From the NCBI RefSeq assembly GCF_056746865.1, contig NZ_CM163382.1: a DNA stretch of 64,000 nt; one strand, written 5' to 3'. Position 1 is the stretch's first letter. Every line of letters starts with the position of its first letter. Positions 9,423 to 47,347 of this stretch are shown one piece after another. The position numbers and the translations under genes are program-made. Under the pieces are notes generated by a model, which saw only the letters and a program-made list of their open reading frames with translations, was not told where the DNA came from and ran no database searches.

Positions 9423-9917
9423 TTAACGAACCGTCCATGCAGGGCTGAAATCCTCTTCCTGAAACAGCTCTGTCAGCCCGCTAATCTGTTTCAGCCTCAG
9501 CACTTCATCCTGGTCCATGCCCAACTCTGTGCCAATACGCTCATCTGTCCAGCCCAGACGTGAGAGGTCCCTGACAATGTCAGACATTGACGTTACCTGG
9601 TGTTTTCCCCTGGCACGGTTATGCCGTATGGTTGCGGCAATACGTGATGCCTGTCCCTTTCTCTCTGGATTAATACAGGCCACTGGCAGCCAGCCCTTCA
9701 GACGTTTTCTCGTATCCGCTTTCCTGCCCAGCAACTGACGATGAAAACCATCCACGACCAGATAATGCTCCTTCTCTTCCGAAACCACCACAGGCTGCGT
9801 GAATCCATCCTGCTCCAGTGAATGTTTAAGCAGTTTTTTTTCACTGGAAGACATGACATTGGGATTGTAATCGTTGGCCACCACCTCATCCGCTTTCACC
9901 CACAACACACAATCCAC
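9423..9917 (-). CDS. ParB-like nuclease domain protein (IbrB-like)
   Basis: 164 aa with ParB N-terminal-domain motif VVDGFHRQ and a C-terminal HTH-like segment. Confidence 0.55.
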   Translation of the reverse strand: MDCVLWVKADEVVANDYNPNVMSSSEKKLLKHSLEQDGFTQPVVVSEEKEHYLVVDGFHRQLLGRKADTRKRLKGWLPVACINPERKGQASRIAATIRHNRARGKHQVTSMSDIVRDLSRLGWTDERIGTELGMDQDEVLRLKQISGLTELFQEEDFSPAWTVR

Positions 9918-10003
9918 AGGCTCCTGTGCAAAAGGGCTGACTGATCTTACCCAGCAATAGTGGACACAGGACTAAGTGAGTAAACTCTTAACCAGGGTGA
10001 CTC

Positions 10004-10303
10004 ATGACAAAACCAGTATCAATCAGCAAGAAGCCCCGTGAACAACATTCGCCTGAATTTCGTAACGAAGCCCTGAAACTCGCTGAACGCATCGGTGTGG
10101 CCGCCACAGCCCGTGAACTCAGCCTGTATGAATCTCAGCTTTATGCCTGGCGCAGTAAACAGCAGCAACAAATGAGTTCGTCAGAGCGCGAAAGCGAACT
10201 GGCCGCTGAAAATGTCCGCCTTAAACGACAACTGGCGGAGCAGGCTGAGGAACTGGCCATCCTCCAAAAGGCCGCGACATACTTCGCGAAGCGCCTGAAA
10301 TGA
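10004..10303 (+). CDS. IS3 OrfA
   Basis: 99 aa [32 protein letters not shown]..., recognised as IS3 OrfA. Confidence 0.85.
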
Positions 10304-13300
10304 AGTATGTCTTCATCGAAAATCATCGGGCAGAGTTCAGCATCAAAGCGATGTGTCGTGTACTTCGGGTTGCCCGCAGCGGCTGGTATGTCTGGCTCAG
10401 GCGTCGTCACCAGATGAGCCTGCGCCAACAGTTTCGGCTCACCTGCGATGCCGCTGTCCATAAGGCATTCTTTGAGGCAAAGCAGCGATACGGTGCTCCC
10501 CGCCTTGCTGACGAACTGCCGGAGTTCAATATTAAAACCATTGCCGCCAGCCTGCGTCGTCAGGGGCTGCGGGCGAAAGCCAGCCGGAAGTTCAGCCCGG
10601 CCAGCTACCGTGCACATGGCCTGCCCGTATTGGAGAATCTGCTGGAGCAGGACTTCAGCGCCAGCGGCCCGAACCAGAAGTGGGTGGGTGACATCACGTA
10701 CTGTGTGCCCGGAGTTCAGGGCGAGCATAGACGCTCAAATGAACCACGAGTCTGTCTGGAATATTGAACCGGTAACTCACGATGAGAAACCCAACAATCC
10801 CACCGGGTGTGACGGTGGAGAACCTGAGCGGCAGTGACCTGCGGCATGCCCGCAGGGTGATGTAACCCGCTGACAACGGGGATTGAGGCGAGATCACTAA
10901 GCCGAGATGATCCTCAAGGTTAAGTACTGAAAGGCTTAAGAATATGAACCCGTTAATCCGCCTCTGTGGGTTGAAAACGTCACCACGGCCTACGTGATCT
11001 GACAGGCCGTGCAGGAGGAACTGGCAGTGATACGTAAGCACTGCCGGTCGAAGGTGTTTTGACATGTATGCGAAACTCCGGGGCAGCAGCGTCTATCACG
11101 CTCGCGTTGCTGACTTCTGCCAACTTGCGGCAAGCAAGGATAAAGAGTGCGACGGGCAGCCTCCTCAGTATGTCTGAGTCCAGTCAGGCAAACCGGGGAA
11201 GGTCAGCGACGGATGTTAAGGGGGCATGGCTCCGATGACGCGCTGGCTGGCGGAGCTTCCGTAGTAGTCCGCGATGGGGAAAGCCCATTACATGGCGAAG
11301 GGAAGCAGTTTGAATGTGTCTGCGACGTAAATTAACTGACCTAACGAGGTGAAGACCTTTGATAATCAGCGAAATGCAACGCAAGCTTGCCACATGGGCA
11401 GCCACCGATCCGTCCCTACGGATTCAACGGCTGCTGCGTCTGATAACACAACCAGAATGGCTGGCTGAAGCGGCGCGGATCACGCTTTCATCAAAGGGGG
11501 CGAATACCCCCGGTGTTGATGGCGTGAACAAAACAATGCTACAGGCCAGACTGGCTGTTGAGCTGCAAATCCTCAGGGATGAATTACTCTCAGGCCACTA
11601 CCAGCCCTTGCCCGCCAGGCGGGTTTACATCCCTAAAAGCAATGGCAAACTGCGACCACTGGGTATCCCCGCGTTGCGGGATCGTATTGTTCAGCGGGCC
11701 ATGCTGATGGCGATGGAGCCGATATGGGAGAGTGATTTTCATACGCTCTCATATGGCTTCCGGCCTGAGCGCAGTGTCCACCACTCGATCCGCACGGTGA
11801 AATTACAGCTCACCGACTGCGGTGAAACCCGGGGACGCTGGGTGATTGAAGGCGACCTGTCCAGTTACTTCGACACCGTACATCATCGACTGCTGATGAA
11901 GGCTGTACGCCGCAGGATCAGTGACGCACGTTTCATGACTCTGCTGTGGAAAACCATCAAGGCGGGACATATCGATGTCGGTCTCTTTCGGGCGGCCAGT
12001 GAAGGTGTGCCACAGGGCGGTGTTATATCGCCGCTATTGTCGAACATCATGCTGAATGAGTTCGATCAATACCTGCATGAGCGCTACCTGAGCGGGAAAG
12101 CAAGAAAAGATCGGTGGTACTGGAATAACAGTATCCAACGGGGCCGAAGTACGGCGGTCAGAGAAAACTGGCAGTGGAAACCCGCGGTGGCGTACTGCCG
12201 CTATGCCGATGATTTTGTCCTCATCGTCAAAGGCACCAAAGCACAGGCGGAAGCCATCAGGGAGGAGTGTCGGGGTGTGCTCGAAGGCAGTCTGAAACTC
12301 AGGCTGAACATGGATAAGACTAAAATCACCCATGTTAATGACGGCTTTATCTTTCTGGGGCACAGGATCATTCGCAAACGCAGTCGTTATGGCGAGATGC
12401 AAGTGGTCTCAACGATCCCGCTGGAGAAAGCCAGAAACTTCGCCGCATCGCTGACAGCACTGTTATCAGGCAACTACAGTGAAAGCAAAGTCGATATGGC
12501 TGAACAACTCAACCGAAAACTGAAAGGCTGGGCCATGTTCTATCAGTTCGTTGATTTTAAGGCCAAAGTCTTCAGTTATATCGACCGTGTCGTGTTCTAG
12601 AAGCTGGCTCACTGGCTGGCCCGCAAATACCGTACAAGTATCGCTTCCCTGATGAGGTGGTGGTGTAAATCACCGAAACCGGGTCAGAGCAAAACGTGGG
12701 TTTTATTTGGTAAAACCAATCACGGCAAGCTCAGCGGCGAAATACTGTACCGGTTGGTGGGGCAAGGCAAGAAGCTGTTCCGCTGGCGGCTACCCGAAGG
12801 TAATCCCTATCTGAGGACGGAAACCAGAAAGACGTATACATCGCGCTTTACAGAAGTGGCAATGGCGTTCGCCAGCGTTTAAATGGAGAGCCGGATGCGC
12901 TGAAAGGTGCATGTCCGGTTCGGGGAGGAGAGGCAGGGAAATAGTCCGACTACGCCCTGCCTCTTACTCTACTGCGTACCGATGAGGGCTGGTTGTATCT
13001 CACAGTAGTCATCGACCTATGGTCACGCGCCGTCATTGGCTGGTCGATGTCACCGCGAATGACAGCACAACTGGCCTGTGATGCACGGCAAATGGCGTTG
13101 TGGCGGAGAAGACGCCCGGAAAGCGTCATTGCTCATACGGACCGTGGTGGTCAATACTGTTCAGGGGATTATCAGGCGCTGCTGAAGCGACACAACCTGC
13201 GTGGCAGTATGAGTGCGAAAGGCTACTGTTATGACAATGCCTGTGTGGAAAGCTTCTTTCATTCGCTGAAGGTGGAATGTATCCACGGGGAACGCTTTAG

Positions 13301-13424
13301 CAGCCGGGAAATAATGCGGGCAACGGTGTTTAATTATATCGAGTGTGATTACAATCGCTGGCGTCGTCACAGTGCCTGTGGCGGTCTCAGCCCGGAACAA
13401 TTTGAAAACCATAATCTCGCTTAG
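10300..13424 (+). CDS. IS3 OrfB interrupted by group II intron (exon 1 10300-10702, exon 2 12973-13424)
   Basis: Exon 1 ends ...GDITY plus T; exon 2 starts TGCGTACCGATGAG; the ligated junction TAC-TTG-CGT reads YLR and restores the IS3 OrfB frame. Confidence 0.75.
11359..12600 (+). CDS. Group II intron-encoded reverse transcriptase/maturase
   Basis: 413 aa with RT motifs including YADD ([11 protein letters not shown]) and a C-terminal maturase-like region; probably no endonuclease domain given its length. Confidence 0.85.
   Translation: MIISEMQRKLATWAATDPSLRIQRLLRLITQPEWLAEAARITLSSKGANTPGVDGVNKTMLQARLAVELQILRDELLSGHYQPLPARRVYIPKSNGKLRPLGIPALRDRIVQRAMLMAMEPIWESDFHTLSYGFRPERSVHHSIRTVKLQLTDCGETRGRWVIEGDLSSYFDTVHHRLLMKAVRRRISDARFMTLLWKTIKAGHIDVGLFRAASEGVPQGGVISPLLSNIMLNEFDQYLHERYLSGKARKDRWYWNNSIQRGRSTAVRENWQWKPAVAYCRYADDFVLIVKGTKAQAEAIREECRGVLEGSLKLRLNMDKTKITHVNDGFIFLGHRIIRKRSRYGEMQVVSTIPLEKARNFAASLTALLSGNYSESKVDMAEQLNRKLKGWAMFYQFVDFKAKVFSYIDRVVF
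12888..12921 (+). ncRNA. Group II intron domain V
   Basis: GAGCCGGATGCGCTGAAAGGTGCATGTCCGGTTC: AGC triad, GAAA-type loop and complementary arms. Confidence 0.7.
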
Positions 13425-13454
13425 GGCCGTGTCCACATTACGTGGGTAGGATCA

Positions 13455-14280
<826 letters not shown>

Positions 14281-42000: not shown

Positions 42001-43568
42001 CGGCTTCTTTTAGTCGCTCCGTATAGGCCAGTGACACATACTGAGAGCCTTTATCGCTGTGATGGATGGTGCCAGACGGACGACGGGCCCACAACGCCTG
42101 CTCCAGCGCATCCAGCACGAATGTCGTTTCCATAGACGATGAGACCCGCCACCCCACGATGTATCCGGCAAACACATCAATGATAAACGCCACATAGACG
42201 AAGCCCTGCCATGTGCTGACGTAAGTAAAATCAGCCACCCACAGCTGGTCAGGTCGTTCTGCCACGAACTGACGGTTTACGCGGTCGCCTGCGGCAACGG
42301 CTTTCCGGCTGATGGTCGTACGGACCTTTTTACCCCGGAGAACACCGGCAAGTCCCATAACCGCCATGAGACGTGCCACTGTACATCTGGCCACCCTGAT
42401 TCCTTCCCGTAACAACTGACGCCAGACTTTACGCACACCGTACACCTGATGATTTTCATCGTATACGCGCTGTATCTCTCTCTTCAGCCAGTCGTCGTGC
42501 TGCGCACGGGCACTGCGTTTATCCGGATGATGTCGCTGTTGCTGACAATGGTAATACGTTGACGGGGCAATATGCAGTTCGCTGCATACCGGTCCGACCC
42601 CGTACTGCTCACGCAGCTTATCCAGCAGTGGCATCATTTTTTCCAGAGGCGGTCGAACTCCGCCTTCGCAAAATAAGCGGAAGCCTGGCGAAGGATATCG
42701 TTACTGCGGCGCAGTTCACGATTTTCACGTTCCAGCTCTTTCAGACGCTGACGTTCAGCGCTGGTGAGCCCACCATCACCGCCCCCGGTATCCCGCTCAT
42801 GCTGGCGAACCCAGACACGCAGAGTCTCCGGCGTACAGCCAATCTTTGGGGCAATGGAACAAATTGCCGCCCACTGTGAGTCATATTCATCCTGACTTTC
42901 CAGAACCATACGAATCGCCCGCTGACGGACTTCGGGGGAAAAACGAGTATTTTTAGTCATCCTGTTTACCTCTTTCTCAGGGAGTTTAGTCTCCAGGATT
43001 TCCGGGGCGGTTCAATATGGCGCAATTGATTGAGTTTGGTGATCCTGAACTGGAAAACTTTGCCGCGTTTGCTCATTTGCTATCACGTCGATTGAAAGGG
43101 GTAACACCAGAAAACATCGATCTCAGTGCACTGGTACTAGAAAAATTCAAAATCAAATACGACAAAGAGCCGCTTCCAGAAGCGTTTAATCAGGTACTTG
43201 AACCTATCCGCCCCAACTATAACGACCCTGCGGATCGTGAACAGGCATTTCTTGCCGATATCATTCGCCGCCTAAACGAACTGTTTGGCGATGTCGGCGA
43301 CGAACCCGGTCGCCGAAACTTTGCCAACGGTACTATTACGCGTGTCACCCAAAATCCAATTGTGGTTGAGCAGATAGAAAAGCACGACAAGTCGATTGCC
43401 CTCAAAGGCGACTTGCCGCAAGCGGTGAAGCAAGCCGTTGTGCAGGCTCTGCTGAAAGAAGGTGATATAGCCCGAACGCTACTCAAAGACCCACAAGTTA
43501 TGGCAAGTTATGTTGAGTTGATTTTTGACATGATGAAGCAAGGTGCAGAACAGGCGGCGGTGAAATAA
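39019..43568 (+). pseudogene. hsdR: Type I restriction enzyme R subunit HsdR, split by IS629 (insert 41705-43014)
   Basis: Helicase motifs (SAGSGKTS, DEAH-box-like IIDEAH); the frame is continuous across the insertion once IS629 and one ATA duplication are removed. Confidence 0.8.
41705..43014 (-). mobile_element. IS629, copy 1 (1310 bp), 3-bp target duplication ATA
   Basis: Ends TGAACCGCCCCGGGTTTCC... and ...GGTTCA; OrfA 42634-42960 and OrfB 41747-42637 match IS629 from memory. Confidence 0.9.
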
Positions 43569-44984: not shown

Positions 44985-47347
44985 ATGAAGGTTGATTCAA
45001 TGGCCGATAACATCCCACAAGCTCCTCAAGGTGAGTTTGTTCTTTTCACCAGTGCTGATGGTCAAACCCGCGTTGAGTGTCGTTTTGAGTCTGACACCTT
45101 GTGGCTTTCTCAGGCTGCAATGGCAGAGCTTTATCAAGTTAGCTCTCAAGCAATCACCCAACACGTAAAAGCTGTCTATTCTGAAGAAGAGCTTGAGCAA
45201 ATTTCAACTTGTAAGGATTACTTACAAGTTCAACTGGAAGGTGGCAGAGAAGTAAAGCGAAGCATTCGTCACTACAGTCTTCCGGTTATTCTTGCAGTAG
45301 GATACCGAGTTCGCTCAACACGTGGCACCCAGTTCCGCCAATGGGCAACCAGAATGTTGCAAGTGAACCGCCCCGGGTTTCCTGGAGAGTGTTTTATCTG
45401 TGAACTCAGGCTGCCAGATCATCGTTTCCGATGGAAGCATAATAAGCTTTTTCTGCTTCTGCCGGAGGAGTATGGCCCAGCCTTCCCAGCAATCGTCGAT
45501 TGTTATACCAGTCCACCCACGTTAGTGTGGCCAGTTCCACTTCTGCACGGTTTTTCCAGCTCTTACGGTGTATTACCTCCGCTTTGTAAAGACCATTGAT
45601 GCTCTCAGCCATCGCGTTGTCATACGAGTCGCCTGTACTCCCTGTTGATGCCAGTAATCCGGCTTCTTTTAGTCGCTCCGTATAGGCCAGTGACACATAC
45701 TGAGAGCCTTTATCGCTGTGATGGATGGTGCCAGACGGACGACGGGCCCACAACGCCTGCTCCAGCGCATCCAGCACGAATGTCGTTTCCATAGACGATG
45801 AGACCCGCCACCCCACGATGTATCCGGCAAACACATCAATGATAAACGCCACATAGACGAAGCCCTGCCATGTGCTGACGTAAGTAAAATCAGCCACCCA
45901 CAGCTGGTCAGGTCGTTCTGCCACGAACTGACGGTTTACGCGGTCGCCTGCGGCAACGGCTTTCCGGCTGATGGTCGTACGGACCTTTTTACCCCGGAGA
46001 ACACCGGCAAGTCCCATAACCGCCATGAGACGTGCCACTGTACATCTGGCCACCCTGATTCCTTCCCGTAACAACTGACGCCAGACTTTACGCACACCGT
46101 ACACCTGATGATTTTCATCGTATACGCGCTGTATCTCTCTCTTCAGCCAGTCGTCGTGCTGCGCACGGGCACTGCGTTTATCCGGATGATGTCGCTGTTG
46201 CTGACAATGGTAATACGTTGACGGGGCAATATGCAGTTCGCTGCATACCGGTCCGACCCCGTACTGCTCACGCAGCTTATCCAGCAGTGGCATCATTTTT
46301 TCCAGAGGCGGTCGAACTCCGCCTTCGCAAAATAAGCGGAAGCCTGGCGAAGGATATCGTTACTGCGGCGCAGTTCACGATTTTCACGTTCCAGCTCTTT
46401 CAGACGCTGACGTTCAGCGCTGGTGAGCCCACCATCACCGCCCCCGGTATCCCGCTCATGCTGGCGAACCCAGACACGCAGAGTCTCCGGCGTACAGCCA
46501 ATCTTTGGGGCAATGGAACAAATTGCCGCCCACTGTGAGTCATATTCATCCTGACTTTCCAGAACCATACGAATCGCCCGCTGACGGACTTCGGGGGAAA
46601 AACGAGTATTTTTAGTCATCCTGTTTACCTCTTTCTCAGGGAGTTTAGTCTCCAGGATTTCCGGGGCGGTTCAAAGAATACCTAATCAAAGGATTCGTCA
46701 TGGATGACGAGCGCCTGAAAAATCCGCCCATTGGCCATTCTGCTGTGCCAGATTACTTTGATGAAATGCTGGAACGCATTCGTGATATCCGAGCTAGTGA
46801 GCGTCGCGTTTATCTGCGAGTCAAAGAAATCTTTACCATGGCTGCTGATTACGAGCCATCTAACCAAGAGACCAACCGCTTCTTCCAAACCATTCAGAAT
46901 AAGCTGCATTATGCTTGTACGCATATGACGGCTGCTGAGCTTATCGCCAGCCGTGTGGATGCCAGTAAGCCGGATATGGGCTTAACCAGCTATAAAGGCG
47001 ATGAAGTGCGCAAGACAGACGTTACTGTTGCCAAGAACTATTTGCGTGAAGACGAAATCAAAGAGCTTAATCGCATCGTCAATATGTGGCTCGACTTTGC
47101 TGAAGACCAAGCACTGCGTCGCAAGCAGGTATTTTTACAGGACTGGGCCGATAAGCTTGACCAGTTCTTGAGTTTTAACGATAGAGATGTATTAAACGGT
47201 GCAGGAAAAATCTCCAAGAAAGACGCTGATGACAAAGCGAAATTGGAGTTTGACCGCTTTGCCCAGCAGCGCCGTCGTTTAAAAGAAGCCGAAGGCGCAC
47301 GGGCCAATATCGCAGCCCTCAAGGCCATACTAAAAAAAGATAAATAG
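44985..47347 (+). pseudogene. rhuM: RhuM-family protein, split by IS629 (insert 45364-46673)
   Basis: N-terminal part ...YSLPVILAVGYRVRSTRGTQFRQWATRMLQ; frame continues after the IS once one AAG duplication is removed. Confidence 0.65.
45364..46673 (-). mobile_element. IS629, copy 2 (1310 bp), 3-bp target duplication AAG
   Basis: ORF products identical to copy 1; same orientation. Confidence 0.9.

Follow-up and report, generated by a model that had tools for sequence, protein, structure and literature searches.

E.c.I4 and its described relatives

Previous studies reported that the group II intron E.c.I4 inserts at specific positions in the transposase genes of IS629, IS911, ISEc16, and ISEc31, with one full-length copy in Escherichia coli UTI89 and a fragment in MG1655 (Leclercq and Cordaux, 2012; PMC3522654). 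The single full-length E.c.I4 of strain SMS-3-5 was found to contain a disrupted ORF and to be present in a strain-specific genomic island (PMC3522654). E.c.I4 and S.f.I1 belong to the bacterial class A, whose proteins are devoid of the endonuclease domain (Toro and Martinez-Abarca, 2013; PMC3552965). A comparable arrangement is that of RmInt1 in ISRm2011-2 of Sinorhizobium meliloti, for which an in vivo splicing efficiency of only 0.07% was reported (PMC3035460); its authors proposed that the intron restrains the spread of its host insertion sequence (PMC3035460; PMC4238363).

In our study, a group II intron of 2270 nucleotides was found at 10703–12972 on the plus strand of the window (the whole 64-kb stretch of DNA that was analysed), where it interrupts orfB of the insertion sequence ISEc16. 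By the naming convention of the bacterial group II intron database, an intron takes the name of copies to which it is more than 95% identical (as quoted in PMC3552965). The insert shared 98.5% identity with the copy in pUTI89, 98.3% with the ykfC fragment of MG1655 (K-12), and 99.9%, with 2 mismatches, with the copy in the SMS-3-5 island, which is annotated in RefSeq as ltrA with an internal stop. The window copy fell in a sublineage that differs from the common plasmid form by 34 substitutions. The evidence is concordant in pointing to E.c.I4, the name being drawn from matches to copies listed in the literature and not from a database entry. Earlier work already covers the intron and its class, the preference for transposase genes of the IS3 family, ISEc16 as one of the hosts, and a copy with a disrupted ORF in the same island of SMS-3-5 (PMC3522654).

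The window copy shares with E.c.I4, to which S.f.I1 is identical or nearly identical, a sequence identity of 98.3–99.9%, a 502-amino-acid RT/maturase without the endonuclease domain, and the point of insertion. It differs from intact E.c.I4 copies by the nonsense mutation W409*; the SMS-3-5 copy, annotated with an internal stop, is only 2 bases away. The ykfC gene of E. coli K-12, in the CP4-6 region, belongs to the same family, lies in the IS3-family element IS911, and is likewise non-functional. ykfC stops at intron position 1764, with IS5 annotated directly downstream, whereas the window copy extends over the whole intron and has a point mutation as its only damage. Like RmInt1 in ISRm2011-2, the window copy is an endonuclease-less intron in the sense orientation within a transposase gene. 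RmInt1 belongs to class D, uses another host element, and in the copies studied encodes an intact protein and is highly mobile, whereas the window copy lacks the end of its protein.

We consider that the locus holds an E.c.I4 copy that retrohomed into orfB of ISEc16, that now encodes a truncated maturase, and that is decaying, so that neither splicing nor mobility promoted by the copy itself would be expected; we put the probability of this reading at roughly 90%.

Boundaries of the intron and its ISEc16 host

The features of the host element and of its immediate surroundings were as follows.

9942–10702, plus strand: left part of ISEc16 (5' exon), from an alignment to the ISEc16 of E. coli 536 that is gap-free across the junction, with frames checked
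Within 9942–10702, plus strand: left inverted repeat of ISEc16, TGATCTTACCC...
10004–10303, plus strand: reading frame orfA
From 10300, plus strand: 5' portion of the orfB reading frame, with the first 134 codons and 1 nucleotide before the intron
10703–12972, plus strand: group II intron
12973–13454, plus strand: right part of ISEc16 (3' exon), from alignment and frames
Within 12973–13454, plus strand: remainder of orfB, with its stop at 13422–13424
Within 12973–13454, plus strand: right inverted repeat of ISEc16, ending ...GGGTAGGATCA
13455–13541, minus strand: 87-nucleotide piece of a diverged intron (intron positions 32–118, 91% identical)

The intron began with GTGTG at 10703 and ended with CTAC at 12972, so that the GUGYG and AY ends of group II introns coincide to the base with both limits of the insert. 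These limits were located by comparison with the copies from pUTI89, strain 005008, and K-12, whose flanks are different IS3-family elements (an IS629-like element, IS911, and an IS629/IS911 chimera). To the base, similarity started at 10703 in all three copies and stopped at 12972 in both of the full-length ones. The ends proposed in the original prediction (GTGTG and AC) agreed with this comparison, as did the sense orientation relative to orfB.

Joining of position 10702 to 12973 in silico gave ...ACGTACT|TGCGTACC..., and alignment of the joined exons with an ISEc16 free of any insert, that of E. coli 536, showed no gap at the junction, with 1229 of 1245 bases identical (98.7%). The joined frame encodes a 284-amino-acid OrfB that reads ...GDITYLRTDEG... 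(...WVGDITYLRTDEGW...) across the junction. The exact splice junctions and the in-frame OrfB that had been predicted from the sequence of the insert were both recovered in this comparison with an empty site. A programmed frameshift is part of the annotation of the E. coli 536 copy, relative to which the window copy lacks one base upstream of the orfA ATG.

The host element, spanning 9942–13454, had been called IS3. An IS3-family orfB is indeed present; the near-identity to the E. coli 536 element, the orfA/orfB arrangement, and the rve (DDE) core identify the element as ISEc16, a relative of IS3 and not IS3 itself. The rve domain covered residues 122–220 of the ligated OrfB, and the intron is inserted 1 nucleotide after the codon of Y134, three residues beyond D131. 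D131 aligns with what we take to be the first catalytic aspartate of DDE integrases, and the intron lies between this residue and the remainder of the rve core. From unspliced mRNA only OrfA and a truncated OrfAB are possible, the latter ending 21 codons into the intron (ORF 10300–10767). Because the intron splits the DDE core after its first aspartate, transposase would be produced only from spliced mRNA, and the predicted dependence of transposase expression on splicing is right in its logic.

No target duplication was found around ISEc16, the flanks reading ...CTGAC on the left and CTCCA... on the right. IS3-family elements are expected to be bordered by a 3-bp direct target duplication. 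Judged against SMS-3-5, the left flank is the end point of a deletion; this deletion runs into an ibrB-like gene and replaces the further pieces of an old, diverged intron that SMS-3-5 holds to the left of ISEc16. The 87-nucleotide piece touching the right end of ISEc16 is a remnant of an older, related intron and lies within an IS911-like orfB that has itself decayed. Several mobile elements are stacked at this locus, which is part of an IS-rich genomic island.

Intron-encoded protein and intron RNA

The following features were assigned within the intron, all on the plus strand; the names of domains I–IV are those suggested by the consensus fold described below.

10708–11198 (intron 6–496), plus strand: predicted domain I, closed by the 5-bp helix CCCGG/CCGGG
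11199–11252 (intron 497–550), plus strand: predicted domain II, a hairpin domain
11256–11307 (intron 554–605), plus strand: predicted domain III, a hairpin domain
From 11308, plus strand: predicted start of domain IV, enclosing the ribosome-binding site and the ORF start
11374–12600, plus strand: truncated RT/maturase ORF (408 codons from the ATG; 413 from the upstream TTG at 11359)
12601–12882, plus strand: 3' remainder of the RT/maturase gene beyond the premature stop (93 codons and the original stop)
12888–12921, plus strand: domain V, from RF00029 and folding, with a GAAA loop and a 2-nucleotide bulge
12924–12970, plus strand: domain VI, from RF00029 and folding, with a bulged branch-point A at 12966

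The ORF at 11359–12600 contained the YADD motif, and the ATG at 11374 is the start used in RefSeq. At position 12599 the window contained an A, where intact copies contain a G, by which the TGG (Trp) codon at 12598–12600 is turned into TAG (W409*). Translation of the frame 11359–12885 gave 413 residues, the TAG, and 93 further residues up to the natural stop at 12880–12882. The complete protein is 502 amino acids long and is here cut at residue 408, with the loss of the last 94 residues. The 413-amino-acid RT/maturase of the original prediction does carry YADD, but it is a truncated form of the 502-amino-acid protein and not a full product. The orphaned 3' remainder matched, in frame, residues 410–502 of the pUTI89 and L003 proteins; it codes for the last part of domain X together with the C-terminal extension specific to the class.

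In the intact 502-amino-acid homologue only RVT_1 (86–332) and GIIM (356–421) were found by Pfam, with no D/En domain, and the last 93 residues had no NCBIfam match. The premature stop falls inside GIIM, of whose match about 80% is left, and the RT domain is complete in the truncated protein. Coverage of TIGR04416, an equivalog of group II RT/maturases with 353 positions, ran from 4 to 352 in the intact protein and from 4 to 340 in the truncated one (326 bits).

Rfam model RF00029, which spans domains V and VI, matched 12886–12972 with 64 bits (gathering score 40; E 2.8e-10), in agreement with the position that had been predicted for domain V. The last 93 nucleotides folded at -48 kcal/mol (z = -5.5) into the domain V hairpin and a helix for domain VI, in which one A is bulged, 7 nucleotides from the 3' end of the intron. 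The 34-nucleotide domain V with its AGC triad, GNRA loop and 2-nucleotide bulge, and the bulged A of domain VI, expected 7–8 nucleotides from the 3' splice site, are those of group II introns. The second base of the domain V bulge (12912) is a U here and a C in most E.c.I4 copies. Its interpretation as a second lesion was rejected, as a U is also present in the intact-ORF copy of strain E41 and in a Salmonella relative, and an A in a Serratia relative; we take the U to be a polymorphism.

The same matches bear on a reading in which only an RT gene of the retron or defence type is present and the RNA features arose by chance. Weak protein matches to retron and Drt models were seen, all of them below threshold. 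TIGR04416 scored 326–341 bits against a cut-off of 300, the GIIM domain is present, domains V–VI scored above the Rfam gathering score, and the insertion is precise, sites that lack it being known. The RF00029 match, the empty ISEc16 site, and the TIGR04416 score refute this reading, and its probability is negligible.

The Rfam models of D1–D4 gave no match to the intron, even at E ≤ 1; we assume that these models leave a gap in the coverage of class A. As the D1–D4 models found no match, comparative folding was used. The 670 nucleotides upstream of the ORF were aligned for six sequences, including relatives 80–92% identical from plasmids of Yersinia pestis, Klebsiella, Salmonella, and Serratia, and the consensus fold was obtained by RNAalifold. 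The consensus contained domains I–IV upstream, with the ORF in domain IV, as in other group II introns. A minimum free energy fold of the single sequence was not used for the assignment of domains I–IV. Compensatory changes on both sides were found in 16 pairs, against 5.5 ± 1.8 in shuffled alignments (0 of 500 reached 16) and 0–3 in slid controls, which is supportive without being proof, since the structure and the test share one alignment of six sequences. On these models the intron RNA looks competent.

The 61-mer containing the TAG was present in 45 of the 2388 E. coli records that hold the segment. A query repaired to TGG, which also covered the sublineage-specific A at 12637, was matched exactly by 7 records, in which the sublineage retains TGG. 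In strain E41 the orthologous ISEc16::intron locus differed by 3 bases, and its ltrA was intact (TGG). The presence of the TAG in so few records and the TGG of the E41 ortholog indicate that the nonsense mutation is recent and confined to one lineage of the island.

The original prediction described the intron as intact, and this part fails: the TAG lies inside GIIM, and the last 94 residues of the intron protein are gone. Of an autonomous intron a full-length protein with complete RT and X domains is expected, and here the protein is short and its X domain incomplete. It is accordingly very improbable that the locus contains an autonomous intron that is fully functional and controls the production of ISEc16 transposase through its splicing. 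The intron ends, domains V and VI, the branch-point A, YADD, and the in-frame junction are what such an intron would show, and the RNA is only 3 bases away from that of the intact-ORF copy in E41. These features are outweighed by the premature TAG within the maturase domain with 94 residues missing, by a pairing of only 4 of 6 bases between the proposed EBS1 and the ISEc16 exon (below), and by the annotation of identical copies by PGAP (RefSeq) as ltrA pseudogenes with an internal stop. In class D proteins the C-terminal region contributes to maturase function and mobility (PMC3552965); by analogy, the same region would be needed in class A. The truncated protein would then have lost its maturase function, as our preferred reading of a decaying copy holds.

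Target site, splicing, and probable decay

Seven exon contexts were examined. All of them ended in the codons of D-x-T-Y, and 6 of the 7 were IS3-family transposase genes. The intron was always inserted after the first base of the codon following D-x-T-Y, and the 3' exon began with a T in all 6 contexts in which it was visible. This codon position was shared by ISEc16, IS629, IS911, and the relatives in three other IS3-family genes; the 80–92% identical relatives on Klebsiella, Salmonella, and Yersinia plasmids occupied the D-I-T-Y position of such genes. The following pairing segments are proposed.

10858–10863 (intron 156–161), plus strand: candidate EBS2, UGAUGU
11033–11038, plus strand: hexamer CGUAAG, proposed as EBS1, in the apical loop of the hairpin at intron 319–347, with a covarying stem

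Searching the single sequence by brute force left EBS1 and EBS2 ambiguous, and the result became usable only once the relatives and their own exons were added. We propose the CGUAAG loop as EBS1, an assignment of ours and not of a database. The hexamer paired at 6 of 6 bases with the IS629 exon CUUACG. With the ISEc16 exon (CGUACU) only 4 of the 6 bases paired, -1 and -5 being mismatched, and the same held for the IS911 exon. The Y. pestis relative contained GAUAUG in this loop, which fits the exon of that relative at -1 (C) and -2 (U). UGAUGU paired at 6 of 6 with the ISEc16 exon from -12 to -7 (ACAUCA) and had the highest score over the seven intron/exon combinations (40 of 42; next best 34). 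It is tentatively suggested as EBS2, its location in domain I being unusual. Another EBS2 candidate, at intron 218–223, was dropped, as it scored lower than 156–161 and lies within predicted helices.

The mismatches of the proposed EBS segments, at -1, -5, -8, and -10, fall at wobble positions and at the first base of the next codon. The wide range of IS3-family hosts may stem from the way in which the target is read: the EBS-paired positions would be the first and second positions of the D-x-T-Y codons, which are constrained by the protein, with mismatches tolerated elsewhere. We regard this explanation as possible and still rather doubtful.

The history that we propose is as follows. A class A E.c.I4 would have retrohomed into orfB of ISEc16 within an IS-rich genomic island. 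Members of the family enter the sense strand of IS3-family transposase genes one base past the Tyr codon of the conserved W-x-x-D-x-T-Y, a point just beyond the first catalytic aspartate of the DDE core. Through a recent change of TGG to TAG the protein of the intron now ends at residue 408 of 502, and the C-terminal extension has been lost along with the last part of the maturase domain. As these parts are gone, the copy should not promote its own splicing or mobility, and with the truncated maturase and the EBS1 mismatches proposed at -1 and -5, splicing from the window copy alone is unlikely. Splicing can be minimal even for an intact intron within an insertion sequence, as RmInt1 shows. 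The competent-looking RNA would be spliced or mobilised only with protein supplied by another, intact E.c.I4 in the same cell. The outcome would be a silenced, decaying ISEc16::intron pair inherited with the island.

Rescue in trans is the main alternative. In this case the RT/maturase of another E.c.I4 would splice, and perhaps mobilise, the ribozyme of the window copy as an active non-autonomous passenger, and some transposase would be made. The RNA domains are conserved, with support from covariation, and E.c.I4 is common: in a megablast search of complete E. coli genomes the insert was matched in 2668 of 5426, often on plasmids, with as many as 20 places in one genome. Among genomes that contain the identical copy, some matched the intron at up to 7 places, so that a helper may exist outside the window, and several chromosomes had a single place. 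Within the 64-kb window no helper was found: there was no second E.c.I4 reading frame, only the 87-nucleotide diverged fragment. Another Rfam intron match, at 56022, was an isolated fragment with no domain V/VI match nearby, and the ORFs of at least 100 amino acids around it did not appear RT-like. Proteins of group II introns show a preference for the RNA from which they are translated, as is known from Ll.LtrB, and the pairing of the proposed EBS1 with the ISEc16 exon is weak. We consider this alternative unlikely, and clearly more probable than autonomous function.

The reading of a decaying E.c.I4 with a truncated maturase concerns an element that is already known and ordinary. The original observation was essentially right and its claim of intactness wrong, and the importance of the locus beyond correct annotation is slight. 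If the proposed reading of the target were true, mismatch at the splice site would be tolerated, and the intron could home into any IS3 relative, splice poorly there, and act as a general silencer of this family of insertion sequences. The locus is a neat case of the decay of a group II intron inside a mobile element, and the TGG version in E41 and the TAG version, being forms of one orthologous copy, provide a natural pair for tests of maturase dependence.

The surroundings of ISEc16

The right end of ISEc16 (9942-13454), the IS3-family element which carries the E.c.I4-type group II intron in its orfB, was found to adjoin immediately a diverged piece of a second intron:

13455-13541, minus strand: diverged intron fragment of 87 nt, corresponding to intron positions 32-118 and 91% identical

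This fragment of an older relative of the E.c.I4-type intron was contained in a decayed IS911-like element (together with 13533-14247, minus strand). As the old fragment in the IS911-like element abuts ISEc16, we conclude that ISEc16, together with its own intron, was nested within an earlier pair of intron and insertion sequence.

The left end of ISEc16 adjoined a truncated ibrB-like gene (window 9423-9941). In contrast, E. coli SMS-3-5 and E41, which contain the same island locus, possessed about 3 kb extra to the left of ISEc16 (L006 26008-29038, the comparison locus), comprising the remainder of ibrB, ibrA, fragments of insertion sequences and parts of the old intron. From this comparison of sequences, the left flank in the window looks like the product of an IS-adjacent deletion. 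No target duplication was found at the two flanks of ISEc16 (CTGAC/CTCCA).

Reading frames of ISEc16 and other IS3-family copies

Compared with the uninterrupted copy of E. coli 536, OrfA and OrfB contained 10 amino-acid substitutions, and one base was absent 5' of the orfA start codon (window 9990-10003), where CCAGAGGTGACTCATG was changed to CCAGGGTGACTCATG; this loss altered the likely Shine-Dalgarno sequence of orfA. A weak ALIL-like match (10276-10376, plus strand), which at 21 bits fell short of the gathering score of 50, covered the orfA/orfB overlap, the place of the annotated programmed frameshift in the E. coli 536 copy. Three ALIL frameshift pseudoknots of 116-122 bits, two of them identical to each other, were present elsewhere in the window:

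42563-42679, minus strand: ALIL frameshift pseudoknot
46222-46338, minus strand: ALIL frameshift pseudoknot
51537-51652, minus strand: ALIL frameshift pseudoknot

Their presence implies three more copies of an IS3-family element, all of which were devoid of the intron.

A second group II intron signal, unrelated to the E.c.I4-type intron, was also found:

56022-56161, plus strand: RF02003 group-II-D1D4-4, 67 bits

No further Rfam intron match and no domain V/VI were found within 54500-59500, and the signal appears to be an isolated remnant. The adjoining ORFs of at least 100 aa were not RT-like in appearance.

Intron copies in other genomes and plasmids

One E.c.I4 copy, in E. coli 005008 (L003 2940-5330), was flanked by an IS629-type exon on its 5' side and by an IS911-type exon on its 3' side, and these mixed exons suggest that intron copies residing in different insertion sequences have recombined. 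A Serratia proteamaculans plasmid (L010 1960-4290) contained a relative that was 80% identical and whose ltrA (RT/maturase gene) was intact; this relative was not located in a recognisable IS3 transposase gene. The 5' exon of the Serratia copy nonetheless terminated in GACATCACCTGGC and shared the ACATCAC stretch, which matches the tentative EBS2 candidate (UGAUGU, window 10858-10863). In several hundred pO157-like plasmids only the first 76 nt of the E.c.I4-type intron were present, adjoining an IS3-family exon, and an 'ATP-binding protein' gene came next. The 76-nt piece is a widespread, fixed 5' remnant of the intron.
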